A stretch of DNA of 64,000 nt from Alphaproteobacteria bacterium. Its GTDB lineage: Bacteria > Pseudomonadota > Alphaproteobacteria > MPNO01 > UBA830. The position numbers and the translations under genes are program-made. The notes below the pieces were generated by a model, which saw nothing but the letters and a program-made list of their open reading frames with translations, ran no database searches and had not been told where the DNA came from. Shown piece after piece: positions 5,461 through 25,127 of the stretch. The stretch is from positions 3,168,001 to 3,232,000 of the forward strand of contig OZ251539.1 of assembly GCA_965243135.1 (NCBI GenBank). The letters run 5' to 3'. The stretch's first letter is position 1. Each line of letters begins with the position of its first letter.

Positions 5461-5474
5461 CCTGAACCGACCGC

Positions 5475-6325: not shown

Positions 6326-6333
6326 GCCGGGCC

Positions 6334-6534: not shown

Positions 6535-6561
6535 ACCCTCTTCCTCTCCGCGGCTCCCGTT

Positions 6562-7029: not shown

Positions 7030-7115
7030 CGCAGGCTCCGTCCGCCCCCGTTATCTGATACCGTCGGTCGAGGGATCAAGGTCCGGTCCCGAAGCGCCAC
7101 GTCCAGATTCCGGCC

Positions 7116-8801
7116 ATGACAGATCCCGTCGCCGTCCGCATCCTTCGCAATCGCGTCTCCAGCGTCATGGAGGAAATGGACTATCACTTCTACCGATCCG
7201 GGTACTCCACGATCGTCCGGGAATCCAGGGATTTCAGCTGCGTTGTCGCCGACCGCAACGGACGCCTGGCGGCGGCGCCGCCGATGTTCTTCCACGGGCC
7301 GGTCTATTATCACCTCGTCCAGCGCGTTCTGGAGCTTTACGGGGAGAACGGCCTCGCCGACGGCGATTACCTCGTCTGCAATCATCCGTACGAAGGCAAC
7401 CTGCCCCACGTTCCCGACATGGCGATCGCCGCTCCCGTCTTTCACGGCGGGCGACTCGTCGCCTTCGCGGCGAGCGTCGCCCACAAGGCGGACATGGGCG
7501 GAGCGGTTCCCGGCAGCGCCTGGGGCCAGGCGACGGAACTGTTTCAGGAGGGGCTGCTTCTGCCGCCCCTCAAGATCGTCCGCGCCGGCGTTCCGAACCG
7601 CGACCTCGAACGCCTGATCGGCGCCAACTCTCGCGCGCCCGAACTGGTGCTGGGCGACATGCGGGCCCAGATCGGCGCGGTCGGAATCGGACGACGGCGC
7701 GTCGAGGCGCTGTGCCGCCGGTTCGGAGCGGACGCCTTCGCCGCGACGATGAAGGCCGTGATCGACGCGTCGGCCCGAAGTTTCAAGGCGGCGGTCGAAC
7801 GCCTGCCCGAGGGCGAACACGCCTCGGAAGGCTTTCTCGACGGCGACGGCGTCGACCGCGCCGCGCGGGTTCGCCTGCACGTCAGAATCGCCGTCGCGAA
7901 CGGGCGGGTGGAGTTCGATTTTTCCGGCTGTTCGGGCCAGACGCGGGGCCCCGCCAACCTGCGCCTCGCCATGGTCGAGGCCTGTTGCTTCTACTGCCTG
8001 ACGGGGTTTCTCGACCCCGAACTCCCGTACAGCGACGCCGCGAGGGACCTCGTGAGGTTCGTCTTCGCGCCCCGCTCCGTCCTCAACCCCGAACTGCCCG
8101 CCCCGTGCTCGTCCTACATGAAGACTTGCCACAAGCTGGTCGACGTCGTCCTGCAGGCGCTCGATCCGTTCATGCCCGGCCGGGCGATCGCCAACGCCGG
8201 CGGCAGCGGCGGCAGCATCGTCATGGCGTGGCCCGACCGCGAGCCGGGCCGCGGCAACCAGTACGAGATCTTCGGGTCCGCCTACGGCGCGGGAAAGAAC
8301 AACGACGGGGCGACCGGCGTTTCAACTCACCTCGCCAATCTCTACTGCACGCCCGTCGAGATCGTCGAATCGGAGTTCCCCTGCCGCGTCGTCCGCTACG
8401 AGCCGGTTCCCGACACCGGCGGCAACGGCGAGTTCCGCGGCGGGTTGTCCGTCCGGCGGGATTACGAACTGCTTGCGCGCGCCAGCGTCGTCTATCGCGC
8501 CGACCGGGCGGTCGTGCCGCCGGCCGGCCTTGCCGGCGGCGGCGACGGCGCCCCCAGCAGGTTCCTTCTCCATCCCGATACCCCGCAGCAAAGGCAGCTG
8601 CCTTCGTCTTTCCGCGAGGAATTCGCGCCGGGAACCCGCTTCAGCCTGCGCAGCGCCGGAGGCGGCGGTTACGGCGACCCGGCCCGCCGTTCGCCGGCCG
8701 CCCGCGCCCGCGACCTTGCGGAAGGCTACGCGACGAAGGCGGATGACGGCGTATCGAGGCTCGCGTTTGCCGAGGAAAAAGACGCGCGCCGCGGCGAATG
8801 A
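7116..8801 (+). CDS. Hydantoinase B / 5-oxoprolinase-family subunit
   Basis: MTDPV..ILRNR, YSTIVRESRDFSC, NHPYEGNLPHVPD, HKADMGGAVPGS, ELFQEG, GGGGYGDP. Confidence 0.92.
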   Translation: MTDPVAVRILRNRVSSVMEEMDYHFYRSGYSTIVRESRDFSCVVADRNGRLAAAPPMFFHGPVYYHLVQRVLELYGENGLADGDYLVCNHPYEGNLPHVPDMAIAAPVFHGGRLVAFAASVAHKADMGGAVPGSAWGQATELFQEGLLLPPLKIVRAGVPNRDLERLIGANSRAPELVLGDMRAQIGAVGIGRRRVEALCRRFGADAFAATMKAVIDASARSFKAAVERLPEGEHASEGFLDGDGVDRAARVRLHVRIAVANGRVEFDFSGCSGQTRGPANLRLAMVEACCFYCLTGFLDPELPYSDAARDLVRFVFAPRSVLNPELPAPCSSYMKTCHKLVDVVLQALDPFMPGRAIANAGGSGGSIVMAWPDREPGRGNQYEIFGSAYGAGKNNDGATGVSTHLANLYCTPVEIVESEFPCRVVRYEPVPDTGGNGEFRGGLSVRRDYELLARASVVYRADRAVVPPAGLAGGGDGAPSRFLLHPDTPQQRQLPSSFREEFAPGTRFSLRSAGGGGYGDPARRSPAARARDLAEGYATKADDGVSRLAFAEEKDARRGE

Positions 8802-9793
8802 CCGCGCGCGCAAGAGGCGCGACGCAAAACTGGAACGATCGAAAGTTGGCCTTCGAGGCCGCGAAGGCGGCCAACAGGCTGAGCGGCGCTGAAGGTCGCA
8901 CGCCCCAGTCGCCCGATCTCAGAGAGTTACGCCTGACGCGCTCCGGAGCGGGCGGTTCTCTCCGGTTTCTCGTTGAGCCGGCCCGCCCCGCGAGGTCCGT
9001 GAAATTTCTTGTCGGACGCCGGATTTCGCCCGTCATCCGGCTCCCTTCACGGATGCATCGCGCTCCGCGCCGGCCAACGGCTGCATGCGCTTGACGGCAT
9101 GGCGTTCAGCCGCGAGGCGGGCGCCCTTGAGTTTTCGGCGCGCATTGGATGCCGGAAAAGAGAACTTTCGGTCGGCGAGAGCGGAGAGCGTCGCCGAGCG
9201 TTTCCTGGACGCGCTCGCGGGCTGACCGGCGAAGATCTCGCTGCATCGACGGCGCAATAGGAGATCCCTGCCCGACATGCGCCACGGCGCACTGCCGGGC
9301 GAACGAGAACGTCCTCGACAAGTTTCGCGAGGGGCCGGCCGTCGCGGTCTCCATGCTGTCGCGCTGCCGAACCCAAGGAAGACGCCTGCATCGCCAGCCC
9401 GACAACTTCGACGACCTGCCGACCTGCGTCCGTTACAAGGATCCCGGCAGACCGAAGCGCGAGCGCTGCGATTGTTCGCAAAGTTCGGCGACGAAATGCA
9501 GGCGCTTTCCAGGACAGGATCTCGTGCATCCTGTTCGCCATTTTCGCCAAGAAGCGGCAGGGTGCGCCTCCCTCGTTCTCGCAAACACGGAATTTTTTTG
9601 CGAACCCAGACGACCGGGCTTGATTCGGTGCGCGACAATCATATATGTTTCGAACGTCGCCCAAAGGGATGGCCGAACGTGGCCTTCAGGGATCTTTCGG
9701 ATGACTGATTCCCTGCAGGTTCGGCGTTGAGCCGAAATTCTGCTCGTCCCGGCGGATCGATTCAATCAACTCCGCATCCGGGAGATCCATCTC

Positions 9794-12700
9794 ATGTCTC
9801 AGAAGACGACCGTGGCGGTTCTCGTCGCCACCGCTAATCGACCGACTCTGCTGAAAAGTCGGGCCCTTCCCTCGATCGCAGAACAATCCCGGCCGCCGGA
9901 CCGCGTGGTCATCGTCGACGATTCGACCGACGACATGGCCGAACATATCGAGAGGCTGGTCCAAGGCTGGCAACCTCCGGGAATCGCTGTCGATTTCCTG
10001 CGCAACCGGCGGACGAAAGGCGCGGCCGGCGCATGGAATTCCGGTCTGGATCATTTGCTGCGGACATGCGGCGATCCGGCCCTGCTCTACGTCGCGATCC
10101 TTGACGACGACGACCGATGGGCGCCGCGCCATCTGGAGACATGCCTGGAAGCCGCGGATAATTTCGGCTTCGAGGTGATCGCGGCGCCTTTTCGGAGAAT
10201 CGAGGAAGGCGCCGAACCGAGCTTGACGATTCCGCCGCCGAACCTCGACGAGGCGGATTTTCTGGCGGGGAATCCCGGCATCCAGGGCAGCAATCTGGTC
10301 ATCCGTCTGGACGCGCTGCTCGAAGCCGGGCTGTTCGACGAGTCGCTCGCTAGCTGCACGGATCGCGACCTGTGCATCCGTATCTCCGAGTTGCCGAACG
10401 CGCGCTACGGCGTCACGTCCGAGGCAACCGTCGATCATTTCGCCTGCGCGTCGCGGGCGCGCCTGTCCACGCCGGGTTCGGACGCCAAAATAAGGGGATT
10501 GGACCGCTTCTACCGCAAGTACCGGGGCCGCATGTCCGAAGATTTGCGCCGGAAATTCCGGGCGCGGGCGGCTCGGAATTTCGGGTGGGAGGAATCGGCG
10601 CCGAAAGCCATGAACGGAGCCGCCGCGCGCCGCGGACCATCGCCGCCGCGGTCCTCGGCGCCGCCGCAAGCGCCGCCCCATCTGATTGTCGGGATGATCG
10701 CCGACACGGCGCGACTCGAAGACTTGGGTGGTTTGCTCGCGGACCTTCGCGGCCTCGCCGAGGACCCCGAACTTTCGGGCCTCGACGTTCTGATCCTGGA
10801 GAACGGGCAAGGACGGGCGCCCGACGAATCGTTGCGGAGCCTTGTCGAGCGCAAGCGCACGGATGGCCTGCGGGTCCATCTCGTGGACCGCGCACGGCAC
10901 GCCGAGGACGCGAGAAACGCACTTGTCCTCGACGGCGGCGCGGGAGAGGGACGCAGGCTGGCCATAGCTCCCGCTCGAACGGTTCTCCAATCGTATCTGT
11001 ACGCGTTCGCCAAGCGCCGGCCCGGCGCTGTGGTATGGATCGTCGATGACGACATGCGGCTGGATCCGCTCGTCATCGGAAAGGACGGGCGATTGCGGCG
11101 GCAACCCCGGCCGCTCGCGTCGACCCTGCGGGAACTTCGCAGACTCCACGCGGGCGGCAAACTCGACATCGCCATCGGGACGTACGCCGGGGCGCCTCCG
11201 CTGCCGTTCGCGGCGACAGTGCGGGTGCAGCTCGTCGATCTGACCGCGTCGCTCCGGTTGCTGGCGTCGCTGGATCCGAAGGGGATCCTGCCGGACAGCG
11301 GCACGGAGAATGCGAATCTGCGATCCGGCCGGCGCGACTATTTTTACGACCTTTCGCGCGAGGAAACGGATCGCTTGGAAACGCCGTTCTGGATCGTTCC
11401 CGCGTTTCCGGGCGAAACCGTCGGCGAAGCCTTTGAGCGGATTTCCATGACGGCCGAACGTATCCTGGCCGGCGAGCAGATCTTCCGGCCCCTCGCGGCC
11501 ATTGCCGACGCCGACCCTCTGGAGTCGATCGGCGTGGGCCTCCAGCGCGGCGGCAATACGTTCGTGTTCGATGTCGAGGCGTTGAGGCTGGCGCCAAATC
11601 CCTCGCCAACCATCGACGGGCGGCCAAGCCGACGCTCCGACATGATCTGGGCCCTGCTGCAGGAGCGCCGCTTCGGCCGGCGGGTCGCCACCGTGCCGAT
11701 CGCCCTCTATCACGACCGCTCTCGCGTCCTTGCCGGAGAACTGGACGCCGAGCGCATCGTGGACGACGTTCGCGGCTATGCGACGTTTTCGGCTCTCCAG
11801 GACACTCTCGAATCCATTCCCGACGACGGGCGAGGCTCTGTCACGGATAGCTTCGGCCAGATCGAAGGAGGGATCGAACGCTTCACGAATCTTGCGCGCA
11901 AGTACCTTGAAGAACGGCTGGCGGCGTTCCGCCTGTCCTTCTACCGCATCCTCGGCCTGAAACGCGTCCTTCGCAGACTCGTGGACGACGGGGAGATCTG
12001 GTGGCGGGAGGAGCGGTACCGGGACGCCAGAGCGCAGCTCCGAACGTTCTGCGATCGGCTGGACCGCTTCTACGCGATGGAGATTCTGAACCGTATCGAA
12101 CGCGAAGCTGAAGCCTTGCAGGCTCCTCAGATTCGCGAATTTCTCGATCAGCTTCCCAAGGAGATCGAAGCGCATCGGAACCGACTCTCGAAGTTCCCGG
12201 CTCTGGCGCATGGTATCGAGGGCGAAAGAATCCTTAACGCCAAAGCCGTCGCTGCGCGGCTGGGCGGGTCCGCCGATCCTCTCACGGTATTGGGATGCGG
12301 CATGGAAGGCGTGGCGCTCACCGACGGGAAACGGGTGATCAAGGTCTTCGACTACTGGTGGAAGTCGTCGCACGTCATCTCGGCTCCATCGTATCTGCGC
12401 ACGCTCCCAAGCGCGTGGAAGGGCACGCGTTGCCTATATCCCATCCTCGATTTCCGTGAATGGGGATATCGCGCGGTACTGGTCTATCCGTTCGAGGTCA
12501 GCGAACCGTACTCTGGCGGCCACGGGCCGGGCATGGCCGAGTTCCTTGCCGAATGCCGACGGCATGACGTCGTTTGCCGCAACCTCCATCCCGACAACCT
12601 GCGGGTCGTCGATGGGCGGGTCCGGCTGGTCGACTACGGATCGGATATTCGTCCTCTGGAAAAGGAGCGCGAGTTCGCGGCGATGTGCCAACGGGGCTGG

Positions 12701-15043
12701 CTATGTTACCGCTGGGCGAACCGTCCCGACCTCAAATCGATCATGCGTCGGGCCCGAAACGATGCGGCCATCGCCGAACTGGATGGCTTCGAGCGGTTTT
12801 ACGAGGCGGTTCGACGGATGACGGGACTGCAGCGAACGTCGGAGGACATCGTTCTCAAGATGGCCGGTCGACCCGTGCGCGTCCTCGATTACGGGTGCGG
12901 AAGCGGCCGGCTGGCCAAGGCAATGGCGAACCGGGGAGCGCGAGTCCTGGGCTACGACCCCGACCGCGCCCATCGAGCGCGCTGGGATTCGCGTTGCGCG
13001 GCAACGAACCGGTTGCGATTTACGAGCGACCGGGACGAGGCGCTGGCGGCCGGACCGTTCGATCTCGTGATCTGCCGCCGAGTGCTCTGCACCCTCGAGG
13101 ACGATGTCGAATTGCGAGCCGTGTTCGACGACCTGCGGGCCTCGGTAAGCGAGCGCGGCCATGCCATCGTGACCGTATGCGACCCGCACTTCACGTTCGG
13201 CGGTCCGACCCCGGAGGCCGACCGCGAATTGCCGCCCGGGGCACGTTACGAAAGCACTTTCACATGGCGCAAGAGGCTGCGCGCAACGGGACGGGTGCGG
13301 CGCGACGTGCATCGGCCTGAGCGGGCGTTGCGGCGCGAATTCGCCCGTGCGGGTCTTGCGGTGTGCCGCCGTCTCGAAGTGCCGACGGTCGATCTGGAGC
13401 GGTTCGAGCCGGCATCGGATCAATTGGCGTTCGAACTACGGCCGTTGGCCCCCCTTGCCGGAAAGGTCGCGCTGATGGTCAAGGCGTGCGCGATGGAGGC
13501 GAAGACCCTCGACATCCAGCTCCGCCACCTGGTTTCGCAACTCGAAGAGCCAAGAGCGTTCGCCGAGCGGATTCTCGTGATCGATTCCCGCGAGAACGGT
13601 TTTCTCAGACAATACGCGCAGGGCGACCTGCGCAGTCTGCGAGAAGCGGCGCATCGTCTGGCGGAAGCCGGTTGGATCGACCGGATCGTAGAGGGACCCG
13701 GCGACGGCGAGGCCACCGCAGCGCTGCATCGCGCGTGGTTCGGGATTCCGTGCCCGCTGGCGCACGTCGCGACCGGTATTCAGTCAGCTTCGACGTTGAC
13801 GGGTTTCGAGGCATGCACGACGCGCTATGTCCTCCATGTAGACGCGGATGTCATGATCGGCCGTCTGGATCGCAACCACGACTATCTGGCCGAGATGACG
13901 GCGGCGCTGGCCGGAAACCCCGACGCGCTCACAGTGTCGTTCTACATCGCATCCGACCGCGACCGGCCAGTCGGCGCCGATGAAGGGTCCGGTCCATGGC
14001 GCACGGAAACGCGCGCCGGGATGTTGGATCTCTTTCGACTGCGCCGTGCGCGCCCGCTGCCGAACGCGCTCGACGGAAACCGCTTGGCGCTCCCTTGGCA
14101 CAGAGCGTTGGACCAAACCGTCCGGGAAGGGATTGGGCGCTCCTATCGGGGCGGCGACCGCCGGGCCTTCTTCGTGCATCCACCCAACGTGCGCAAGCGA
14201 GATCAGGAAGCGTGGTTCGCGACGCTCGACCGTATCGAACGGGGAACGGTTCCAAGCGTTCAGAAAGATAGAGTGAACTGGACGGGCACCGCCGAGGAAT
14301 GGTCGGGGCCGCAGCGGAACGAACCCTTCGTGTTCGTCGTCTCGGGCCGCAACGTGCCGCCGGGCCGGCTGCGCCGCTGCCTCGACTCGATGATCCGCCA
14401 GCGCGGTCCGCAATGGGGCGCCGTGGTCTTCGACGACGCATCGGAGCCGCGCTTCGCCGATCATTTCGAGATCGCCTGTACGCAGCTCGGAGCGCACTGC
14501 ACGATCGTTCGGAACCGGGTTCGGCGCGGGCTGCTGCCCAACATGGTCGCCGCCATTCGGACGATATGCACGAACCCCGACTCGGTGATCGTGACGTTGG
14601 ATGCGGACGACGCCCTGATCGGCGCGCGGGTCCTGGAGCGGCTGAACGAAGAATACCATCGGGGCGCCGACGTCACTGTGGGTTCGATGCTGCGGACCGA
14701 TCAGGCCGCCGACTATCCTGTGCACTTCGACCGGCCGCGCGAACGGCGAGGCGGCAACATCTGGCAACATTTGCGGTCGTTCAAGAAGCGGCTGTTCGAC
14801 GCCATACCGGACGATGCCCTGCGCCTCGATGGCGGCTACATCGATTTGGCCAACGACTGGGCGTTCATGCTGCCCATCGTGGAGATGGCCCGCAACCCTG
14901 CGCACATCCCAGACCCGCTCTATCTGCACGAACCTTCGGCGACCGGGAAAAGTCCGGCAATAAGGGCGGCCCGCGAAGAAATCGTGGCGCGTATCGTCGC
15001 CAAGAATCGAGTCTTGCCAGACGACGGCCGGGTCGGATCCTGA
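9794..15043 (+). CDS. Giant multidomain protein: GT2 - GT-A-like - kinase-like - class I SAM-methyltransferase - GT-A-like - GT2
   Basis: 1749 aa with GGAGA RBS. DxD-type motifs LDDDD, VDDDM, VDADV, LDADD. Kinase-like LGCGMEG / VIKVF / RNLHPDN / VDYG. MTase motif VLDYGCGSG...FDLVIC. Confidence 0.85.
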   Translation: MSQKTTVAVLVATANRPTLLKSRALPSIAEQSRPPDRVVIVDDSTDDMAEHIERLVQGWQPPGIAVDFLRNRRTKGAAGAWNSGLDHLLRTCGDPALLYVAILDDDDRWAPRHLETCLEAADNFGFEVIAAPFRRIEEGAEPSLTIPPPNLDEADFLAGNPGIQGSNLVIRLDALLEAGLFDESLASCTDRDLCIRISELPNARYGVTSEATVDHFACASRARLSTPGSDAKIRGLDRFYRKYRGRMSEDLRRKFRARAARNFGWEESAPKAMNGAAARRGPSPPRSSAPPQAPPHLIVGMIADTARLEDLGGLLADLRGLAEDPELSGLDVLILENGQGRAPDESLRSLVERKRTDGLRVHLVDRARHAEDARNALVLDGGAGEGRRLAIAPARTVLQSYLYAFAKRRPGAVVWIVDDDMRLDPLVIGKDGRLRRQPRPLASTLRELRRLHAGGKLDIAIGTYAGAPPLPFAATVRVQLVDLTASLRLLASLDPKGILPDSGTENANLRSGRRDYFYDLSREETDRLETPFWIVPAFPGETVGEAFERISMTAERILAGEQIFRPLAAIADADPLESIGVGLQRGGNTFVFDVEALRLAPNPSPTIDGRPSRRSDMIWALLQERRFGRRVATVPIALYHDRSRVLAGELDAERIVDDVRGYATFSALQDTLESIPDDGRGSVTDSFGQIEGGIERFTNLARKYLEERLAAFRLSFYRILGLKRVLRRLVDDGEIWWREERYRDARAQLRTFCDRLDRFYAMEILNRIEREAEALQAPQIREFLDQLPKEIEAHRNRLSKFPALAHGIEGERILNAKAVAARLGGSADPLTVLGCGMEGVALTDGKRVIKVFDYWWKSSHVISAPSYLRTLPSAWKGTRCLYPILDFREWGYRAVLVYPFEVSEPYSGGHGPGMAEFLAECRRHDVVCRNLHPDNLRVVDGRVRLVDYGSDIRPLEKEREFAAMCQRGWLCYRWANRPDLKSIMRRARNDAAIAELDGFERFYEAVRRMTGLQRTSEDIVLKMAGRPVRVLDYGCGSGRLAKAMANRGARVLGYDPDRAHRARWDSRCAATNRLRFTSDRDEALAAGPFDLVICRRVLCTLEDDVELRAVFDDLRASVSERGHAIVTVCDPHFTFGGPTPEADRELPPGARYESTFTWRKRLRATGRVRRDVHRPERALRREFARAGLAVCRRLEVPTVDLERFEPASDQLAFELRPLAPLAGKVALMVKACAMEAKTLDIQLRHLVSQLEEPRAFAERILVIDSRENGFLRQYAQGDLRSLREAAHRLAEAGWIDRIVEGPGDGEATAALHRAWFGIPCPLAHVATGIQSASTLTGFEACTTRYVLHVDADVMIGRLDRNHDYLAEMTAALAGNPDALTVSFYIASDRDRPVGADEGSGPWRTETRAGMLDLFRLRRARPLPNALDGNRLALPWHRALDQTVREGIGRSYRGGDRRAFFVHPPNVRKRDQEAWFATLDRIERGTVPSVQKDRVNWTGTAEEWSGPQRNEPFVFVVSGRNVPPGRLRRCLDSMIRQRGPQWGAVVFDDASEPRFADHFEIACTQLGAHCTIVRNRVRRGLLPNMVAAIRTICTNPDSVIVTLDADDALIGARVLERLNEEYHRGADVTVGSMLRTDQAADYPVHFDRPRERRGGNIWQHLRSFKKRLFDAIPDDALRLDGGYIDLANDWAFMLPIVEMARNPAHIPDPLYLHEPSATGKSPAIRAAREEIVARIVAKNRVLPDDGRVGS

Positions 15044-15179
15044 AATGGGACGCAGCGATTTCTTCGGATAGTGCGCTTCCACGAAACCGCCGACCCGCTT
15101 TGAAGGCGCGCGAGTTGATCCTGTGTCGATCACTCAGGAAAAGAGCTGAGGTCAAGAATCGGGCGCAATGCGGCGGACG

Positions 15180-15790
15180 GGGGCGTCGACGAGCCGTTCG
15201 ATGTGATCCGCTCCAAGCTCATGCGCCTCAGCGACCACGGAGGGCAGGCGCAGTACACCCTGAAACGCGATCGCCAATCGCCGCCTTGCGTCGAGTCTTG
15301 CGAGGTCGCCAACCTCGGCCCCAAGCCGTGCACCGAACGGGAAACCGTCGGCGACCCGAAACGCGCAGATCTCGTCCATCCGATGTGCAGTTCGCCGACG
15401 AGGGACGAAGTGCGGCGAACCGTAACCTCGCCCGAGTTCGCGATCAGCTGGGAGGACGGCAACCTTCGGACGAGTATGGTCGGGATCGTGCCGGACGGCA
15501 TCTTGGAATCGCTGCCCAAACGGAGAAAAAACCGCAACGCCGGTTTACAACGCCATCGGCAAGGGAAAACTGCACCGCAGGCATCCTGAAGTGGGAATGG
15601 AACAGTATCGGGATCTTCAGGACGCTCTCGACTATCGGGAAACGGTCTGGGATGAAAGCCCCAACCAATTTCCCACCCTGATTGTTCACGCTCCCCGAGA
15701 CGCTGACCGTTGGTGGCAATACGCGATCCCTCGACACGAAAGGCCGTCGTCTTTTGAGCGTCCATTCGGCGACGAGAGGCGCCGCCACGC
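15180..15790 (+). pseudogene. Probable fragments of one or two decayed genes
   Basis: Protein-like stretches without credible starts (GVDEPFDVIRSKLMRL...EFAISWEDGNLRTSMVGIVPDGILESLP; YRDLQDALDYRETVWDE...RWWQYAIP). Confidence 0.3.
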
Positions 15791-16252
15791 CAAAAAGGCC
15801 AAAACCGCCGTCATCCCGGGAAGCGGTGGAAAAAGAAATGACGGCGGTCAAAAGGGGAGCTTGGAGGGTCGCAACATCCCCGCAGGCACTATTTCAGCCG
15901 GTACAACGAGTGGCTCAAGCTCCCCGGCTGCAATATGGAGCCCGGCGACGATGAGAGCAATCGTCCTGGAAAGCGACGGTCGGCGGGAGCCGCACCGCCG
16001 GGAGACATGCCCGAAAGCCGCGGGGACTCTCGGCCTCGCCGCGGACGTCGAAGCCGCTTCTTGCGGGCCCACGCTATCGCAGATACAAGGGGAATTCAGA
16101 CTCAGCTTTCAAGTCGCCGTCAGAATCCGGCGCCGCAGGAGCTTGGATCGACTCGGCCGGGGGAAAACGCGATCCGTCTTCTCCTACCGGGGTGATCCCC
16201 GTTCCCGCTGCATGAAAACGGCAGAAGAACTGAACGAACAGCGAGGTGGATA

Positions 16253-18838
16253 GTGGCCTTATTACGTTACCAAAACCTTGGCGTTCATCGCCCTGACATT
16301 CTTATGGAGCGGTCGGTCAATGGCCTCAAGATATTCTATGACTTTCTAACTCAAGCGAAGAGGTACATGAAGAGCGAGAGCGCCGTGAAGCGGCTCGCGT
16401 GGCGCAAGGGAAACTCCCCCGACGACATTAAGCACAAGGGGCAAGGATCGTGGGTTCAGCTCACCGAGCCCGAAGATCGGCCCGACGAACCGAATGAGAC
16501 GTTCCGTTCTTTTCTCGACGAGAACGTCGAAAAAATCTACGAATGGCAACCGACGGAGGAGCGGCAAGACTCCGCTTTACGTCCGCATGATCGCTTCAAA
16601 TCCGAACACAGAATCCGGATTCTGGATCGGCATCCTGAGACTGAACAGCTTTTTCTCGAACGCGCACCGTCGGAAAACGCACAGCTTCTCCTTGAACCCA
16701 ACACTTACGTCATCGAACGTCAGCGGCGGGCGCTACGAGCGCTTCAGGACGCGCCGACGCAGGATCACCTGCCTCTGCTGCGGCTGTTCGAAAGTCTGGA
16801 TCATGCCGATTGGGAGAACGTATCCCCAGAATACATGGGCGAAGCGGACTGGACGGTGCTGACCGACCTCGACCGTCCCGGTACGAAAGAACAGCGGCGG
16901 TTCGTGGAAACGGCTTTGGGCACGCCGGATTTCGCTTTTCTGGAAGGTCCGCCCGGCTCGGGCAAGACCACGGCCATCTGCGAACTGATTCTCCAGCTGG
17001 CGAAGCGCGGCAAAAGGGTGCTGCTCTGCGCGTCCACCCACGTCGCCGTCGACAACGTGCTTGAGCGTCTGATGGACGGTGGCAATCCCCACCGCGATCT
17101 CATGATCCCGGTCCGCATCGGCGACAGGAGAAGAGTCTCGGACAAGGCGCGGCCCTGGCAAATCGAGAAGTTCGTCAGGACAGAGAGGAAGAGGATTCTA
17201 GGCGGGATCGACCGCGCCGAACCGCTCACGCGTTCCCGAGCGGCACTGCGCGAATTGTTGCGACAAGGAGACGAAACCATCGAACGCATGGTGCTCGACG
17301 CTGCCAATCTCGTTTGCGGCACTACCATCGGCATTCTGCAACACCCGGACATCAAGAAACGCGGCAAGGAACGCCGCGGTACCGTTCCCGAATTCGATAT
17401 TCTCATCATCGACGAGGCGTCGAAAACGACATTTCAGGAATTTCTCGTTCCCGCGTTATGGGCGAAACGCTGGATGATCGTGGGCGACGCGAAACAGCTT
17501 TCTCCATATGTGGACGACGAAGCGTTGGCCGTGAATATCGAAACATGTCTCCCGGAGAAATATAGGCGTGATGCTTGCGTTGACGCTTTCCTGGCCGCCA
17601 ACGACTCTCGCCCACGCGTCGCAGTGGTCGTAACGGATTCCGAGGCGGCCAAGCGCGCTTACAAGGCTGAATGCGCCGAGCGACCGGTAAAGGTCGTCGA
17701 CAGCGATGAAGCCACCGGGGGCGAATTGTGGGACGCCTCCATCGTCATCGGCGGGAGAGACAGCTTGCAGCAAAGATCGGGCGAATTGCCCCTGGACGTT
17801 GCCTCGCTTCGTTGCGCCGACGGCGAATTTCCGGTTCTCCGTCGGCGCGTCGATGCTTGGCTGCGTCTTTCCGGGCAAGACCGGGAGGAACAATCGGAAT
17901 GGGCGGAAGAGGTCGGCTGGCGACTGGCGCGGTTGTACGAGCAGCGGTTTACCGAGGAAGACAATGGAAAGACGAGGGCAGCGCAGCTCAAAGAACAAAT
18001 CGACAATCTTCTTCCCACGGAGGGCGATAAAGAGGTCTGGAAGAACATCGACAGGGTCAGACGCGTCGCTTTGCCGTCGGTGCTTGAATCTCTGCAATCC
18101 GGCTTCGAACGCGATGACCGCCAGCGCCGCGGGACAGCGCTTTCCGACGGTCTGCCCGATCACGTATTCAGACCGCGCCATGTGCTGCTCAGAACCCAGC
18201 ACCGGATGCATTCGGAGATAGCGCAGTTCTCGCATGACCACGTCTACGACAAAGAGGCGCTCCGCACGCCGGATGACATGGATCGAGAACGAGGCTGGAG
18301 CTACGGCCGTTACGATTATCGGGCCGTATGGATCGACGTGTCGGCGGACGGCGCTTTCAGCAACAACCGCAACGAGAAAGAGGCGCGCAAAGTCGTCGAG
18401 GAGCTCCGCCATTTCGACGAATGGGCGAAGGCCAACCGCAGGAGCGACGGTTCGCCATGGAAAGTCGCCGTTCTGACGTTCTACCGCGGCCAGGAGCGCG
18501 AAATCCGGAAGCATCTGCAGCGCTGGACGGGATCGGCTTCGGCCATGCGTCATTTCCGTCGCGGACCGGGAGGTCGCACGCATATAACCATCGAGCTTTG
18601 CACCGTCGATCGTTTCCAGGGCCACGAGGCCGACCTTGTCCTGATCAGTTTCGCCAACCGGCGGTCGACCAGCTTTCTCGAAAGCCCGAACCGCCTCAAC
18701 GTCGCGCTGACCCGCGCGCGTTACCAGCGGGTGGTCATTGGGGATCGCACTGCGATGCAACGCGCCAGGAACGGCGCGCTCCGCGAGTTCGCCAAACATG
18801 AGAAATGGGAACGCGATATGGGAAGGACGAGGGGATGA
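16253..18838 (+). CDS. Superfamily 1B (Upf1/DNA2/NAM7-like, AAA_11/AAA_12) helicase
   Basis: Walker A EGPPGSGKTT, ASTHVAVDNV, IIDEASK, VGDAKQL, LRTQHRMH, TVDRFQGHEAD, NRLNVALTRAR. Start uncertain (GTG 16253, or ATG 16304/16367). Confidence 0.92.
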   Translation: MALLRYQNLGVHRPDILMERSVNGLKIFYDFLTQAKRYMKSESAVKRLAWRKGNSPDDIKHKGQGSWVQLTEPEDRPDEPNETFRSFLDENVEKIYEWQPTEERQDSALRPHDRFKSEHRIRILDRHPETEQLFLERAPSENAQLLLEPNTYVIERQRRALRALQDAPTQDHLPLLRLFESLDHADWENVSPEYMGEADWTVLTDLDRPGTKEQRRFVETALGTPDFAFLEGPPGSGKTTAICELILQLAKRGKRVLLCASTHVAVDNVLERLMDGGNPHRDLMIPVRIGDRRRVSDKARPWQIEKFVRTERKRILGGIDRAEPLTRSRAALRELLRQGDETIERMVLDAANLVCGTTIGILQHPDIKKRGKERRGTVPEFDILIIDEASKTTFQEFLVPALWAKRWMIVGDAKQLSPYVDDEALAVNIETCLPEKYRRDACVDAFLAANDSRPRVAVVVTDSEAAKRAYKAECAERPVKVVDSDEATGGELWDASIVIGGRDSLQQRSGELPLDVASLRCADGEFPVLRRRVDAWLRLSGQDREEQSEWAEEVGWRLARLYEQRFTEEDNGKTRAAQLKEQIDNLLPTEGDKEVWKNIDRVRRVALPSVLESLQSGFERDDRQRRGTALSDGLPDHVFRPRHVLLRTQHRMHSEIAQFSHDHVYDKEALRTPDDMDRERGWSYGRYDYRAVWIDVSADGAFSNNRNEKEARKVVEELRHFDEWAKANRRSDGSPWKVAVLTFYRGQEREIRKHLQRWTGSASAMRHFRRGPGGRTHITIELCTVDRFQGHEADLVLISFANRRSTSFLESPNRLNVALTRARYQRVVIGDRTAMQRARNGALREFAKHEKWERDMGRTRG

Positions 18839-19941
18839 ACAAGCATGTCGTTTTGAAAAGACGGATCGCCATACGGGGCTGGCGCGTGGTCGGATATGTC
18901 TCCAAGGCGGACAAGCGGAAGGAACTCGAGCCGATTCTGGAGCGCGCCCGCGAAACGGGCGGGACGGACGCCGATGATGTGGCCCGGCATCTGCTTTTCG
19001 AGTCCTCCCGCAAGGTCGTCGCGCAGAGGCTTCTCCGCATCGGGAGAGTATTAAATCTCCTGGAAGAAAATGGCAGAAAATATAGGCTGACCGCGGACGG
19101 CGAGAGAGCCATCGACACCGGCAATGTGTTCGTGCCGGAGCATGGCGCATGGACCGTATGGGTGAGCGAAGATCCGTTGCTCCCGTCTCCCGTCCTGAGA
19201 ATCGACGCTTGGGAAGAACTTGACGCCCTTACCGAGAGCCGGAACCGCCGGGACGCGGAAAAGAAGCGATCGTTCGAGCCGTTGCCGGACATAATTCGCG
19301 AGGTCCAGGAAACGGAAGTCACGCCGCCCGCTTCCGGAGACGGCGTCGCGGTTCGTGTCGGTGAACTGGAGGAGAACGTTGAAGCGGTTTCCTCCGGCGA
19401 ATCCCTGAACCTGATATGGAGCGTCCATGAGCGCCGATTGCGCCTGCAGGGAAAGTGGGACAACAAGACGGTCGACTTCGAACTGGAGGCTCCCGAAACG
19501 CCGCCCGACGAGTTATGGGAAGCTCTTCTTGCCGGCGAAGGGCTATTGAACGATTGGGAACGGCATGCGTTGCGCGTTTCCTTCGCGGAAACGACCGAGA
19601 GCGAACGAGAAAGCATGTCTCGCGATTTGGAGATTCCGAAGCCGTCCGTGCCCCGTTTCGGGGAATTCGAGCCTCTTACGGTTCCGGAGATAGCCATCGC
19701 GGCCCGCTCGCGCGACGATGCCCGCGATTGGTCCGCCTGGCGCCTGCGAACGCGCATCCGAGACTTCGCCACGTCGGAACGTTATGACGAGTGGCGGAAA
19801 GAGGCTGCGGCGCCGTTCGTCGAACACCGCCCGGAGCTTCCCGCCAGGGCCGAACTCGCCGCCGAAGAATGGGCAAACGCCGGCGACAGGCCCGCTCCCC
19901 GAGCATGGCATCTCGTCGCGGCCGAGGACTGGAGACTGTAA
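18835..19941 (+). CDS. Hypothetical protein, possible N-terminal winged helix
   Basis: 368 aa; ATGA overlap with the helicase stop; wing-like segment LLEENGRKYRLTADGERAI. Confidence 0.8.
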   Translation: MNKHVVLKRRIAIRGWRVVGYVSKADKRKELEPILERARETGGTDADDVARHLLFESSRKVVAQRLLRIGRVLNLLEENGRKYRLTADGERAIDTGNVFVPEHGAWTVWVSEDPLLPSPVLRIDAWEELDALTESRNRRDAEKKRSFEPLPDIIREVQETEVTPPASGDGVAVRVGELEENVEAVSSGESLNLIWSVHERRLRLQGKWDNKTVDFELEAPETPPDELWEALLAGEGLLNDWERHALRVSFAETTESERESMSRDLEIPKPSVPRFGEFEPLTVPEIAIAARSRDDARDWSAWRLRTRIRDFATSERYDEWRKEAAAPFVEHRPELPARAELAAEEWANAGDRPAPRAWHLVAAEDWRL

Positions 19942-21464
19942 TGAAACGCGACGAGACTGCCTGGATCAGACACCACTCCCGCGTCGTCGACCAGCGGGAC
20001 TATCGGTTGCCGTCCATGTGGGCGCCGCGTTCGGCGCCGCGTTCGGCGCCGCGCGCGGCCCAATCCGAGAGCGGCCGTACCGTCCACGCGTCCGGGCGAA
20101 ACCGCGAACTCGCGAACCGGATCGTCTCGATGCTGGCCGACGCCGAAGAGCGGGTCGTGTTGTCGAGTTTTCTGCTTGCCGACCGCGATATAGAAGACGC
20201 GATCCTCGCCGCCGCCGCGCGCAAGGTGCGCGTCTACATTCTGCTGGCGTCGGAAGCGCGGCTCGACATCGAGGACAAGGACGGCGAGTTCGAGCAGGCC
20301 ATGCGCGACCAGCATCGGGAGATGCTGTTGCGTCTCGGCGGCCATGCCCTTTTCCGCTCGGCGCCGCACTTCCACGCGAAGTTCGTCCTGGCCGACCCCG
20401 GCGGCGGCGGCGGCGCCGGTCTCCTGCTCACAGCGAACCTCACCAGGGAAGCGCTCCAACGCAACGAAGAGCTGGGCGTGGAGTTGACTCCCGAAGAAGT
20501 GAAGGAAACGTTCGCGCTTGCGCGTTGGGCGTTCTGGGAGTACGCCGAGCATGAATTCGTCGACCCGACGGATCGCTTCAAGTCGGTCAAACCTTTGGGA
20601 TCGGTGGACCATCCGGAACCGTCGTCCCACGTTCCGGCGACGACGTCCGAATCCCGGGAGCTGCTCGCCGAAGCCACGCGTCTCGTCGAGGCCGCTTCCG
20701 GGAAACTCGTCGCCGCCAGCTTCGGATGGGACAAGGACCACGAGATCGTCGAGTTCCTGCGCGTCCGCGCCCGCGAGGGCCTTGACGTGACGGCGCTCGC
20801 CCGCATACGGCCAAGCCAGATGCCTGCGCTTCTCGCCCTCGCCGAATCGGGAGTGCGCGTCTTCGGTTTCAAATGGCTTCACGCCAAAGCGCTGTGCGCC
20901 GACGGCGACAAGGCGCTCGTCATGTCCGCGAACCTGCAACCCGACGGACTCGACCGCGGTTTCGAGTTGGGCGTGCGGCTGAACGGCGATCGCGCCCTGG
21001 AAGTTCGAGATCGACTGGATCAATGGTCCAAGGCTGCCCGTTTTGAACTCCTCGCAGCCCCGACGCTGGGCGACATCCAGGGCGACGCCTTGGCATGGCG
21101 CGAGAACCGACTTGACGAGATGACGGTCGAAGCCGAGCGCCGCATCGACCTCGGGCCGGTCACGGCGGAGTCCGCGGACAGACTGGACGACGCCGCGCCT
21201 CCGGATCCCCCGCCCGCAGGCGATTTACCCGAACTCGCGCACAGCGTCGTTTACGAATGGCGAACGCAGGCTCCCGTTCTCGCCAAGAATGCGAAGCCGG
21301 TGCTCCACGCCGGGAAGAACGAAAAACCCGCTCCCTACGACCTTCCGGTATTCGATGAACCGGGCGGCAGACGCGTCGTGGCGGTCGACTCCGAATTGCA
21401 GATACCCGAGGCACAGGAGATAGCCGCCAGCGCAAAGGCCGCCGCGATCGTGGTCAAGGAGTGA
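19941..21464 (+). CDS. Phospholipase D-family nuclease with two HKD motifs
   Basis: TAATG overlap with the upstream gene; FHAKFVLAD...TANLT and LHAKALCAD...SANL...FELG. Confidence 0.9.
   Translation: MKRDETAWIRHHSRVVDQRDYRLPSMWAPRSAPRSAPRAAQSESGRTVHASGRNRELANRIVSMLADAEERVVLSSFLLADRDIEDAILAAAARKVRVYILLASEARLDIEDKDGEFEQAMRDQHREMLLRLGGHALFRSAPHFHAKFVLADPGGGGGAGLLLTANLTREALQRNEELGVELTPEEVKETFALARWAFWEYAEHEFVDPTDRFKSVKPLGSVDHPEPSSHVPATTSESRELLAEATRLVEAASGKLVAASFGWDKDHEIVEFLRVRAREGLDVTALARIRPSQMPALLALAESGVRVFGFKWLHAKALCADGDKALVMSANLQPDGLDRGFELGVRLNGDRALEVRDRLDQWSKAARFELLAAPTLGDIQGDALAWRENRLDEMTVEAERRIDLGPVTAESADRLDDAAPPDPPPAGDLPELAHSVVYEWRTQAPVLAKNAKPVLHAGKNEKPAPYDLPVFDEPGGRRVVAVDSELQIPEAQEIAASAKAAAIVVKE
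20021..20053 (+). repeat. In-frame 12-bp tandem repeat (GGCGCCGCGTTC x2.75) in the PLD gene
   Basis: Encodes APRS-APRS-APR. Confidence 0.8.
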
Positions 21465-22004
21465 TAAACCGGAAAGCCGCGCGCGACAGCAGGCCCAAGT
21501 CCGTCGTTTCCTGCTTTTTTGCTTCGGAGATCCGGGGCGAAGACCGGGCCGAGGCCCGGCCGCGAAAGCCGAACGCGACATGCCGCTTGGCCAAAAAAAA
21601 AGCGGCGGGCAGTCCTCTCCGGCAGCATCGCGTTGTGTCGCTGTCAAACTGCAACATGAGGAGCGTCCATGGAACGTTGGCGTACCGGCGAAGCGGAAGC
21701 TTCTCGCGGCGGCCGAGCGAACGCACGTTTCGCCGAACCCGTAGCCGGACGTTGCGCTTCCTGAAGCAACGGCCGAACTGCGTCGCCGCCGGTCAAGCCG
21801 TTCGTCAATCGTCGGAAGAACGACCCGCCTGTCCGTGCCGTTGAGCGCCGCCAACCTTCAGGAAGGAGGCGGGCGACGCGACGGCGCGCGGCAAAAGGCG
21901 GCGAACCGCAAAAGATCGCGACGGCGCGAACGCCTCGCTTTGACGGCCCTTGCGACGATGCCTATCTTCCGGCGCGATCCGTCTCCGCAAGCGAAAGGGC
22001 GCAG

Positions 22005-22772
22005 ATGTACCTGCTGAGCATCGAGGGCCGCGTCGTCATCGTGACCGGCGGCGGCAAGGGCATCGGGCGCGTCTACTGCCGCGAACTGGCGAAGGCCGGA
22101 GCGAGAGTCGTGGCCGCCGACATCGACCGCGACGCGAACGAAGACACGGTCGCTGAGATCAGGGCCGCCGGAGGCGAGGCCATCGCGGCGACGACCGACG
22201 TCTCCGACGAAGGACAGACCGTCGAAATGGCGCGCAGAACCGTCGAAGCGTTCGGCCGCATCGACGGACTGGTCAACAACGCCTCGCTCATGAGCGTGCT
22301 CGAACGCCGCGACTGGAACCTTATCCCGGTCGACGAGTGGGACCGCGTCATGGAGGTCAACCTTCGCGGCATCTTTCTCGGCTGCAAGGCGGTGTTTCCG
22401 CAGATGAAGGATCAGGGCGGCGGCAAGATCGTCAACATTTCCTCGGGCCGGTTCTGGAGCGGCACGCCCAACCGCCTTCACTATTCCACCTCCAAGGCCG
22501 GAGTCATCGGCCTCACCCGTTCGCTGGCCCGCGAGGTCGGACCGGATAACGTCTGCGTCAACGCCGTCACGCCCGGCTTCACGCTTTCGGACACCCAGGT
22601 CGCCTCGTCCGGCGAATACGCTCAGACCAACGCGCCGCCCGAGGACAGATGCATCCGGCGCCACCAGTACCCGGAAGATCTCGCGGGCGCGGTGATGTTT
22701 CTGCTGTCGCCGGGGAGCGACTTCATCTCCGGACAGACCCTGAACGTGGACGGCGGCCAGCACATGCATTGA
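22005..22772 (+). CDS. Short-chain dehydrogenase/reductase (SDR)
   Basis: TGGGKGIG, LVNNA, YSTSK, VNAVTPG, GQTLNVDGG. Confidence 0.95.
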   Translation: MYLLSIEGRVVIVTGGGKGIGRVYCRELAKAGARVVAADIDRDANEDTVAEIRAAGGEAIAATTDVSDEGQTVEMARRTVEAFGRIDGLVNNASLMSVLERRDWNLIPVDEWDRVMEVNLRGIFLGCKAVFPQMKDQGGGKIVNISSGRFWSGTPNRLHYSTSKAGVIGLTRSLAREVGPDNVCVNAVTPGFTLSDTQVASSGEYAQTNAPPEDRCIRRHQYPEDLAGAVMFLLSPGSDFISGQTLNVDGGQHMH

Positions 22773-22818
22773 AGCCCGGTTCCGCGGCATGAGGACCGGA
22801 AAGGACGAGGAGAACGCG

Positions 22819-24282
22819 ATGCCGGAAGGCAGGGGTTACGGCGAATACGATCGGCCGCACGAGGACCTGCGCGAATGGATCGAACGCGCGGAAAATCTGG
22901 GCGAGCTGATGCGCATCGACGGCGTCGACTGGAACCTGGAAATGGGTTCGGTCGCCGAGATGATCTATCACGCCAAACCCGACAACCCGCCGGCGATTCT
23001 GTTCCAGAACGTTCCCGGCTACCCGTCCGACTACAGCGTTCTGTCGGGCGCGACGAATTCCATGAACAGGCTTGCGATGACGCTGGGTTTCCCGAAGCCC
23101 GACGGCCCGCTCGACGTCGTGCAGTGCTACCGCGACCGCCTGAAGGACTTCGAGATCGTCCCGCCCCGCGAGCTGAACGCCGGCCCGGTGATGGAGAACG
23201 TCGACCGGGACGGCGAGGTCGACGTCTACAAGTTCCCGATCCCGTTCCTGCACGAGGAGGACGGCGGGCGATATTTCGGAACGGCGGATCTGGTCACGAT
23301 CCGGGATCCGGACAGCGACTGGGTCAATCTCGGAACCTACCGGGTGATGGTCCACGACAGGAACACGGTCGGGCTGTGGATGTCGCCCGGCAAGCACGGA
23401 CGGCAGATCCGCGAGAAATACTTCGCGCAAGGAAAGCCCTGCCCGGTCGCGATCAGCGTCGGACAGGACCCCCTCCTTTTCCTGTCGGCGGCGAACGAGG
23501 TGCATTGGGGCACGCCGGAATTCTCGCATGCGGGCGGGCATCGAGGGATTCCCTTCGACATCACCAGAACCGAGCTTCACGGACTGCCGATGGCGGCCGC
23601 GGCGGAGATCGTTCTCGAGGGCGAGATCATGCCCGACGAGAAGCGCGTCGAGGGCCCGTTCGGCGAATGGACCGGCTATTACGCCAGCGCCGAGCGCGAA
23701 GACTACGTCGTCAAAATTCGGCGCGTCTACCACCGCGACCGACCGATCCACACAATGGCGCGGCCGGGGCGTCCTCCGTCCGACTACTCGTTTTCGAAAT
23801 GCACCGTCAAGGCGGCGATGATCTGGGACGACGTGGAAAGAGCGGGACTTCCCGGCGTCCACGGAGTCTGGAGCATGGAGTTCGGCGGCGGACGCATGTT
23901 CAACGTCGTCGCGATCGAACAGAAATATCCCGGCCACGCCCGGCAGGCGCTGCTGCTGACGGCGGGGTCGCACGCGGCCAACTATCTCGGACGGTTCGTC
24001 GTCGTCGTCGATCACGACATCGATCCGACGAGCGTGCACGACGTCATGTGGGCGGTGGCGTCGCGCTGCGACCCGGAGCACGACATCGACATCATTCGCC
24101 GGACCTGGTCGGGTCCGCTCGATCCGATGAAGCGACCGGGCGAGAACATGAACTCGCGCGCGCTGATCGACGCCTGCCGGCCTTTCGAGTGGATCGACGA
24201 ATTCCCGCACGTCGCCGAAGCCAGCCCGGCCGAACGCGAGCGAATTCGGAAGAAGTTCGGCCACCTGCTCGCACGTCTCTGA
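22819..24282 (+). CDS. UbiD-family (prFMN-dependent) decarboxylase
   Basis: DLREWI, HEEDGGRYFGT, NLGTYR, EGPFGEWTGYY, VVVDHDIDP, ALIDACRP. ATG 22819 follows GAGGAG. Confidence 0.93.
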   Translation: MPEGRGYGEYDRPHEDLREWIERAENLGELMRIDGVDWNLEMGSVAEMIYHAKPDNPPAILFQNVPGYPSDYSVLSGATNSMNRLAMTLGFPKPDGPLDVVQCYRDRLKDFEIVPPRELNAGPVMENVDRDGEVDVYKFPIPFLHEEDGGRYFGTADLVTIRDPDSDWVNLGTYRVMVHDRNTVGLWMSPGKHGRQIREKYFAQGKPCPVAISVGQDPLLFLSAANEVHWGTPEFSHAGGHRGIPFDITRTELHGLPMAAAAEIVLEGEIMPDEKRVEGPFGEWTGYYASAEREDYVVKIRRVYHRDRPIHTMARPGRPPSDYSFSKCTVKAAMIWDDVERAGLPGVHGVWSMEFGGGRMFNVVAIEQKYPGHARQALLLTAGSHAANYLGRFVVVVDHDIDPTSVHDVMWAVASRCDPEHDIDIIRRTWSGPLDPMKRPGENMNSRALIDACRPFEWIDEFPHVAEASPAERERIRKKFGHLLARL

Positions 24283-24496
24283 CCTGCCGGGCCGCCCGGC
24301 GCGCCGACGAGTCGGAAAACGGCAGGGCCGCGGGACCCGGGAACGGCGCCGCGGACGCGCCGGGCGGCGTCGCGCGTCTCGAAGGAAGACCGTCAACGGC
24401 TTCCGGGAGTTCGAAATCGCGGACCGGGAGTATTTCCGGACGAAAGGAAGACGCGGGGCGGCCTGCGCGGGACGCCCCTCGCCCAGGGAGACCGCC

Positions 24497-24940: not shown

Positions 24941-25127
24941 ACGCCGTCCCGATTCCTCGGCCGGCGACGGCCTGCCGGCCCGCGCCTCCCCTGCCCGACG
25001 GTCCGGCGGCGAACGTGACAGGTTTCCCCGAAAGCCGCCGCCGCCGGGAGCGAAAGCCTTCCGAAACGCGTCCGTTTCCGGCGGCGGGAACCAGGGCCCG
25101 AACGACGATAGGGAGGCTCGACGGGAG

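Follow-up and report, generated by a model that had tools for sequence, protein, structure and literature searches.

In a 64,000-nucleotide (nt) stretch of an alphaproteobacterial genome (contig OZ251539.1; the whole stretch is called the window below) we analysed four genes encoding a very large protein with glycosyltransferase (GT), kinase-like and methyltransferase domains (the giant protein), a helicase, a protein with a winged helix-turn-helix (wHTH; the middle protein) and a nuclease of the phospholipase D (PLD) type. We found that they lie together in an island of about 14 kb (8736..22781). This strain-specific island probably carries two accessory modules that function independently of each other. 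One is the giant enzyme; the other is the effector portion of a helicase-wHTH-PLD cassette which at other loci usually has a regulator as its fourth gene. A first-pass annotation had joined the giant enzyme and the helicase/PLD module into one system. That proposal did not hold up, as the two were linked at none of the other loci surveyed.

The evidence comes from a census of both neighbourhoods. Scanning one genome per species yielded 26 loci with homologues of the giant gene, most of them with 10 kb of flank on either side, and tblastn (E<=1e-5) located neither the helicase nor the middle or the PLD protein at any of them. The annotation had itself proposed conserved neighbourhood of the trio with giant homologues as a test, and the test came out against it. 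The reverse search gave the same picture. The giant protein was detected by tblastn at none of 27 metagenome loci encoding the middle protein, which had been collected by a metagenome search that used the aligned sequences of its nearest relatives. It was also absent from G071 (L038/L040), the only other genome locus with the cassette in a screen of 400 genomes of the phylum.

In the one-system model all four genes would form a modification-restriction-like system, in which molecules that bear a sugar mark, written by the giant enzyme, are spared by the helicase/PLD effector. The four genes are indeed neighbours, read in the same direction within one island, and a contig from another study, spanning 14415-16369, shows the order giant-spacer-helicase in a related strain as well. 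Moreover, Mokosh type I systems normally have a kinase domain; the window helicase is without that region and the giant protein has a kinase-like domain. Against this, the giant gene is set apart from the helicase gene by a 1209-nt spacer with no translational coupling, and the usual fourth gene of the trio's cassette encodes a CARF-AAA+-HTH regulator rather than a glycosyltransferase. When the kinase-like domain was compared with the N-terminal region of a canonical MkoA, hhalign showed no relationship (E 0.65), and we rejected it as a displaced MkoA kinase. The census already largely refutes the one-system model, which we regard as highly improbable. A false lead is thereby removed: there is no glycosyltransferase-armed Mokosh-like system at this locus.

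All four open reading frames (ORFs) are on the plus strand. The giant gene (9794-15043) encodes 1749 amino acids (aa) and the helicase gene (16253-18838) 861 aa; the middle gene (18835-19941) encodes 368 aa counted from the ATG at 18835 and the PLD gene (19941-21464) 507 aa counted from the ATG at 19941. Direct reading of the sequence gave ATGA at 18835-18838 as the helicase/middle junction and TAATG at 19939-19943 as the middle/PLD junction. The four ORFs, their domains and the overlaps of the last three had all been described correctly, as judged from ORF calls, Pfam and the sequence itself. The description of one co-oriented four-gene block stood as far as the shared strand goes, but the giant gene is not coupled to the trio, and a gap of 1209 nt lies between them. 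This spacer (15044-16252) holds no recognisable gene: its ORFs matched nothing in Pfam or PADLOC, its G+C content is lowered (0.58-0.61) and it is single-copy in the genome. A degenerate second giant-like copy in the spacer was considered and rejected, as tblastn recovered nothing there except, at its edge, the final 13 residues of the giant protein itself. We also noted an imperfect direct repeat of 75 nt (73% identity) between 10098-10172, in the first GT2 module of the giant gene, and 15964-16038 in the spacer; it is without similarity at the protein level and may be a chance match in a G+C-rich genome.

The island lies between the HyuB gene on its left (window ~7113-8735) and the UbiD gene on its right (~22782-24258), and it contains both modules and a genome-specific SDR gene (22005-22772). 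In two genomes of the same genus (G001 and G002) the HyuB match stops at window position 8735, the UbiD match begins at 22782, and only about 185 nt separate them there (tblastx). The ~14 kb are therefore specific to this genome, and this empty site confirms the earlier claim of an insertion into a catabolic region. The HyuA and HyuB genes downstream are collinear with G001 and G002. Contigs from other public runs (90-99% likeness) bridge both giant-gap-helicase (14415-16369) and PLD-SDR-UbiD (20897-23220), so the arrangement is no assembly artefact and is present in a related strain too. At the ends of the island we saw no convincing flanking direct repeats, no integrase and no tRNA, and simple scans for sigma-70 promoters and terminators gave counts no higher than expected from shuffled sequence. 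The locus is also unlike a normal polysaccharide locus, as the annotation had stated: Pfam searches of the 17 surrounding ORFs found no sugar-nucleotide, flippase or ABC-export gene.

The helicase-wHTH-PLD cassette and its regulator

The trio was present in the same order in 24 of the 27 metagenome loci, the other three being cut by the start of a contig. The same order was found at G071 and on annotated plasmids of Vibrio rumoiensis (NZ_AP018688) and Pontibrevibacter nitratireducens (NZ_CP049815). A fourth gene, encoding about 480 aa, follows the PLD gene and usually overlaps its stop codon; it was found at 21 of the 27 metagenome loci, at G071 and on both plasmids. Five of the six metagenome loci without it end at, or no more than about 170 nt past, the PLD gene. 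The sixth is L061, where a DruH-like gene (3755-7126; PADLOC DruH 3.9e-162) was observed in the regulator's place after the PLD gene.

The fourth protein matched the PADLOC model RtcR_PspF1--CARF_AAA_HTH almost from end to end (1.4e-158, positions 5-464 of 468), a model name which we take to come from Makarova et al. 2020. It also matched Pfam Sigma54_activat, and the GAFTGA loop is present in the protein of L046. RefSeq names the fourth gene on the plasmids as a sigma-54-interacting transcriptional regulator and the middle gene as hypothetical. A sigma-54-type -24/-12 box was found 52-84 nt upstream of the helicase start at 8 of 17 loci, against 0.07 expected from the background of the same loci; the scan used a simple consensus and the loci are not independent, several being close relatives. 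In these features (a CARF-AAA+-HTH protein with GAFTGA, and boxes upstream of the operon) the cassette resembles those under RtcR and RtcR-like activators. Unlike RtcR proper, the protein scores only 177.7 bits against NCBIfam RNA_repair_RtcR (cut-off 650), and it is encoded last in the operon that it would control. No match to rtcA or rtcB was found among the neighbour ORFs scanned, which were part of all neighbours, and none is listed on the two plasmids. Genes seen beside the cassette include type I restriction-modification (R-M) genes, two GmrSD, Cas3/Cse1, DruH, a PglX-like gene, CapP with a CBASS-type effector, PDC-S11 and an integrase. Passages in PMC4012209 and PMC11090510 place RtcR-like CARF-AAA+-HTH proteins next to R-M systems and CoCoNuT superoperons, respectively.

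Of the effector proteins, the helicase is of the Upf1/DNA2 type of superfamily 1 (SF1), with Pfam matches to AAA_11 and AAA_12. It matched the PADLOC MkoA model PDLC03920 (3.3e-85, 285.3 bits) over profile positions 497-1096 of 1112, and no kinase match was found in it with Pfam. The PLD protein has two stretches of Pfam PLDc_2 and matched PADLOC MkoB (7.1e-11, 40.1 bits, positions 311-599 of 610). These matches uphold the earlier description of the helicase/PLD pair as Mokosh-like. Passages on Mokosh in bioRxiv 10.1101/2022.05.11.491447 describe type I as a helicase-plus-kinase gene with a PLD gene, and report that defence requires both the ATP site of the helicase and the PLD protein's catalytic site. 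The cassette shares with type I an Upf1-like SF1 helicase and a separate PLD nuclease with two HKD motifs. Unlike type I, the window helicase is without the N-terminal ~500 MkoA profile positions, which are described as a Ser/Thr kinase. Also unlike the two-gene Mokosh, a wHTH gene separates the helicase gene from the PLD gene at every locus long enough to hold it, and the regulator follows the PLD gene in 21 of the 27 metagenome loci. By sequence, then, Mokosh type I is no more than a distant relative of the cassette: the core chemistry appears to be common to both, while the kinase and the two-gene layout are missing.

The same genome offers a direct comparison. A canonical two-gene Mokosh type I was observed at G000:C1:2816437-2821844 (L071 6438-11845), about 350 kb upstream of the window. 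Its MkoA (1203 aa) scored 863.7 bits over profile positions 5-1103, and its MkoB (599 aa) matched at full length with 360.7 bits. The genome therefore carries a classical system together with the divergent cassette. The window helicase is 26-28% identical to this MkoA over the core, and the window PLD protein is barely detectable from this MkoB (BLASTP E 2e-4). The middle protein was considered as a split-off N-terminus of MkoB or of MkoA and rejected (hhalign E 0.12 and 0.13, respectively). The cassette also differs from DISARM: it has no DrmA, DrmB or methylase, and its helicase matches MkoA rather than DrmA.

The middle protein belongs to a family with 406 cluster representatives at E<=1e-3, for which we found no Pfam, PADLOC or NCBIfam model. 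An AlphaFold model built from 63 sequences had a pLDDT of 95.7 and a pTM of 0.86. Residues 26-97 form a winged helix, matching 2x4h_A with Z 11.4 and a root-mean-square deviation of 1.2 A over 66 residues (VIA-align) and many MarR-type proteins besides, so that the wHTH reported earlier is indeed there. Beyond this domain the whole-model search gave nothing: Foldseek found no PDB match at E<=0.001, and the VIA-align rows covered only 26-97. Prediction of the complex between middle and PLD proteins gave ipSAE values of 0.79, 0.79 and 0.80 in three runs, with 0.00 for the best control; the mark used is attained for 116 of 157 complexes with solved structures and for 2 of 215 mismatched pairs, and is a rough guide here, as our own alignments were used. 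The runs agreed on 100% of contacts, with partner pLDDT of at least 82. In the predicted interface, residues 70-222 of the PLD protein meet residues 311-368 of the middle protein, among them W358 and D365, both invariant. The model thus supports docking of the conserved C-terminal helices of the middle protein on the PLD protein, with the wHTH protein as a putative adaptor.

Taken together, we tentatively propose, with somewhat less than even confidence, that the four-gene cassette is an undescribed, inducible Mokosh-like immunity system. The CARF-AAA+-HTH regulator would sense a signal derived from infection or RNA damage and fire the sigma-54 promoter, so that the operon is turned on and the effector made on demand. 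The Upf1-like helicase would then engage foreign RNA or single-stranded nucleic acid, and the PLD nuclease, held and coupled to this target through the wHTH adaptor, would cut it. The window copy would be a version of the cassette without its regulator. What would be new is an uncatalogued four-gene relative of Mokosh with its own adaptor and CARF/sigma-54 switch, found on plasmids and in defence islands. None of the profile libraries searched names the four-gene cassette as a system, and we found no description of it in the searchable literature, although the text or supplements of Makarova et al. 2020 may already record the neighbourhood. Nor does such a variant appear in the passages that 10.1101/2022.12.12.520048 and 10.1101/2025.07.10.664194 devote to Mokosh. 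If the proposal is true, signal-controlled transcription of a nuclease-helicase defence can be tested directly, and the cassette offers a route to study how such defences stay off until needed.

Several observations weigh against this proposal. The simple consensus scan found no box at 9 of the 17 loci, and several of the loci are close relatives. The window PLD protein matches MkoB weakly, scoring 40 bits where the genome's own canonical MkoB scores 361, and its best library matches are to the DISARM protein DrmC (PADLOC 6.2e-19; NCBIfam DrmC_I 92.8 bits, cut-off 133). Finally, the window copy has neither regulator nor box, and may hence be inactive.

In the window copy, the usual place of the regulator (21465..22004) is a stretch of 540 nt with no trace of a CARF-AAA+-HTH gene, and the junction is bridged by independent contigs. 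Seven regulator proteins used as tblastn queries against the window gave a best E of 0.13, and no full-length CARF-AAA+-HTH match was found anywhere in the genome. Nor was there a sigma-54-type box scoring at least 8 of 11 between 15044 and 16252. The three ORFs, on the other hand, are full length against their homologues (tblastn over residues 1-854, 1-368 and 1-488 of the helicase, middle and PLD proteins, respectively). Alignment reading showed Walker A K238 and the DE at 387-388 (Walker B) of the helicase to be intact. In the PLD protein both HxK(x)4D motifs are present: an alignment of 21 sequences shows no change at H145, K147, D152, H314 or K316, and at least 90% of them keep D321. The window trio thus consists of intact effector genes with regulator and box absent, and is either expressed from another promoter or silent.

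These data also bear on the possibility that the trio is a decaying, non-functional remnant whose activator and promoter were lost on insertion or rearrangement. The missing regulator and box are as such a remnant would have them, and both flanks of the trio (15044-16252 and 21465-22004) are non-coding with lower G+C. The full-length ORFs, with Walker A, Walker B and both HKD motifs in place, argue against decay. So does a strain diverged by 3-6%, in which, among the indels listed, the sums within the trio genes are multiples of three (4+1+1 near 17873-17886; 12 at 20021). The related locus L061 is likewise without the regulator. We consider a remnant rather unlikely, at about one chance in a few.

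We also considered that the cassette may serve housekeeping quality control or repair of RNA or DNA under RtcR-like control, in the manner of RtcAB, rather than act against phages. The RtcR-like score of the regulator, below cut-off as it is, fits this view, as does the work of Upf1-type helicases in RNA surveillance, described in passages of PMC11090510. A housekeeping role sits poorly with a cassette that occurs rarely and in scattered fashion (in 2 of the 400 other genomes screened in the phylum), that is found on plasmids, that adjoins R-M, GmrSD, CRISPR-Cas, Druantia-type and CBASS-type genes, and whose proteins have defence proteins as their closest profile matches. This explanation appears improbable to us.

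Domain build of the giant protein

The giant protein matched Pfam Glycos_transf_2 in two stretches (1.3e-28). Reading along the plus strand, it begins with a GT2 module (module 1; 9794..10633, aa 1-280), with Pfam PF00535 at residues 9-138 and a DDDD motif at 104-107. A second, probably GT-A-like module follows (10646..11893, aa 285-700; DDD at 418-420), with a weak hhalign match to module 1 (E 0.018). Next come a long helical region (11891..12268, aa ~700-825), seen in the AlphaFold model, and a protein-kinase-like domain (12284..12823, aa ~831-1010), recognised with a family profile against PDB sequences. The class I S-adenosylmethionine-dependent methyltransferase domain (12845..13363, aa 1018-1190) matched Pfam Methyltransf_23 (1.4e-15) and 8rdl_A (Z 20.1). 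Module 3 (13436..14293, aa 1215-1500) is a GT-A-like lead with a DxD at D1350/D1352, and the protein ends in GT2 module 4 (14291..15040, aa 1500-1749; DADD at 1603-1606).

Module 4 is homologous to module 1 (hhalign probability 95.9%, E 6e-9). For module 2, atlas leads pointed to GT2, DUF6271 and RGP with language-model scores of 0.90-0.93. For module 3, the atlas lead was a GT2-named cluster (language-model score 0.95), and hhalign gave no significant match to the other modules of the protein. From these weak or language-model leads, a GT-A-like fold is probable for module 2 and a lead for module 3. The acidic residues D104-D107, D418-420, D1350/D1352 and D1603/D1605/D1606 are conserved in 22 of 22 aligned sequences of the giant family.

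The AlphaFold model of aa 700-1215 (mean pLDDT 86.6) has helices over model residues 2-125, followed by a kinase fold and, after it, a class I methyltransferase. The helical region is possibly a coiled-coil spacer, as judged from this model. A family profile of residues 700-1215 run against PDB sequences found MRCK alpha (8.9e-6), ROCK2 (0.0015) and many methyltransferases including WbdD (1.5e-6). The nearest solved relatives of the kinase-like domain in this search are thus DMPK-family kinases. G834, G836, K850, N935 and D947 of this domain are conserved in 21 of 21 sequences. At residue 934, the catalytic-loop aspartate position, we observed A, N, R or K in 8 of the 21 family members; every member keeps its lysine, its asparagine and its DxG aspartate. 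By sequence, this may be a kinase of an atypical kind, or one without activity in certain lineages. The giant protein has no hydrophobic segment (no 19-residue window with a Kyte-Doolittle mean above 1.37), and in PADLOC it gave nothing beyond generic methyltransferase and kinase matches.

This build resembles a known class of enzymes. Passages in PMC3482155 describe WbdD as a methyltransferase-kinase on a coiled coil which caps, and so sizes, the O9a mannan, and whose kinase resembles DMPK-family kinases. In Klebsiella O7 and O12, according to passages in PMC11231755, one polypeptide unites GT modules with a coiled coil and a methyltransferase-kinase terminator. Like E. coli O9a WbdD with WbdA, Klebsiella O7 ORF6 and O12 WbbB, the giant protein has GT modules, extended helices and a pair of kinase-like and methyltransferase domains, here all in one polypeptide. 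On the side of the polymerase we found two homologous GT2 modules, two GT-A-like regions and four invariant acidic motifs. On the side of the terminator we found kinase-like and methyltransferase domains with about 125 residues of long helices; as in WbdD, the nearest solved relatives of the kinase are of the DMPK family, and WbdD itself is one of many methyltransferase matches. From its build and the weak profile matches we infer a resemblance to the coiled-coil polymerase-terminators of ABC-transporter-dependent O-antigen synthesis. On this analogy, assembly of a glycan on some acceptor would fall to the GT modules, and capping of the growing glycan end, for instance with a methyl phosphate, to the kinase-methyltransferase pair.

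A number of findings speak against such a role. Unlike WbdD, the giant protein has four GT-A-type modules, with the kinase before the methyltransferase and GT modules on either side of the pair. WbdD was absent from the top 50 structural matches of the kinase-methyltransferase model, where generic methyltransferases appeared instead, and it was rejected as a structural match. The catalytic-loop aspartate D934, present here, is kept in only 13 of 21 members of the family. Unlike ABC-transporter-dependent O-antigen loci, the window has no wzm/wzt or sugar-nucleotide genes next to the giant gene, and no Wzt_C cap-binding domain was found anywhere in the genome, which is 98.8% complete. Two further points of this kind, the frequent partner gene and the company of the homologues, are taken up below.

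Spread and neighbours of the giant family

At least 120 full-length homologues of the giant protein were found, at 57-84% identity; they make up a conserved family whose members stand alone. The gene was absent in all four same-genus genomes, and 36 further relatives matched only in single GT2 or methyltransferase domains. Across Alpha- and Gammaproteobacteria, Latescibacterota, Gemmatimonadota and Poribacteria the identity is 58-78%. A quick maximum-likelihood tree of 19 giant sequences placed a Gemmatimonadota row within Latescibacterota and Gammaproteobacteria rows within Alphaproteobacteria, on short branches; the rows are metagenome bins and the careful tree search is unfinished. The tree suggests that the gene has moved between distant lineages. 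Several record titles of homologues name sponge-typical lineages, and sponge-metagenome runs hold parts of the window; among the sequencing runs listed as holding it, none was of RNA. In viral contigs, the patterns used found no relative of the giant or the middle protein. Self-contained glycan enzymes of about 1750 residues, common to distant phyla, are candidates for a horizontally traded surface or symbiosis trait.

At 11 of the 26 giant-homologue loci the next gene encodes a SLOG protein (PF18306, LDcluster4), mostly fused to a polysaccharide deacetylase. This gene (~436 aa) was seen to overlap or abut the giant stop codon in L011, L014, L017, L018, L021, L026, L028, L030, L034, L035 and L036. 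A remnant of it beside the window giant gene was considered: tblastn hints at 9548-9779 (E 0.078) were not confirmed, and the family hidden Markov model gave a best E of 0.41 on six-frame translations of three non-coding window stretches. The other neighbours of giant homologues are variable: catabolic genes, AAA_15/AAA_21 ATPases, SIR2_2, HEPN, PIN, NYN, a TOTE primase, HsdM, an integrase and transposases. An export context such as wzm/wzt was not conserved at the 25 loci inspected for it, where one MacB/FtsX-type gene was found (L021). The frequent SLOG-deacetylase partner and these neighbours, which often look like conflict or mobile genes, leave room for a non-classical role. As a separate observation, an AAA_15/AAA_21 ATPase gene of 576-581 aa lies directly upstream and on the same strand in L021 (7908-9638), L023 (7958-9703) and L029 (7955-9697), all of the Latescibacterota/Gemmatimonadota clade, with relatives further off in L018, L024 and L025.

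One explanation built on this pattern is that the giant protein, with its usual SLOG-deacetylase partner, belongs to a system of conflict or symbiosis and is no ordinary enzyme of surface glycans; its target might be a phage receptor, a host-recognition glycan or a nucleotide-derived molecule. The patchy distribution (none of the four same-genus genomes), the 58-78% identity across five groups with nested tree placements, and neighbours from the AAA_15/AAA_21 ATPases to the transposases are in line with this. So are the SLOG domain of the partner, which is LOG-like and nucleotide-binding, and the lack of export genes near the window giant gene and of Wzt_C in the genome. The giant protein, however, has no nucleic-acid-binding or nuclease domain, and the second domain of the partner, a polysaccharide deacetylase, points to a glycan. 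Its PADLOC matches are generic, the neighbourhoods are not conserved, and some of the cross-phylum placements may be binning errors of metagenome-assembled bins. We hold a conflict or symbiosis system to be unlikely.

Other features of the window

To the right of the island, a glyoxalase-family gene (24497-24940, within 24300-25127) seems to be genome-specific too: the distance between UbiD and HyuA genes is about 860 nt here against about 40 nt in G001 and G002. At 63084-63173 ARAGORN called a 90-nt tRNA-Arg (CCG) that is below the gathering score of the Rfam tRNA model, which could mean that the call is false or that the tRNA is unusual.

What may be a second patch of accessory or defence genes (32276-40368) surrounds a tRNA-Met gene on the minus strand (34308-34384). 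It contains a HipA-like kinase gene (32276-33436), a gene for a Dcm-type C5 cytosine methylase (36312-37361, minus strand) and a gene for a 712-aa protein with two HATPase_c-type domains (38230-40368).

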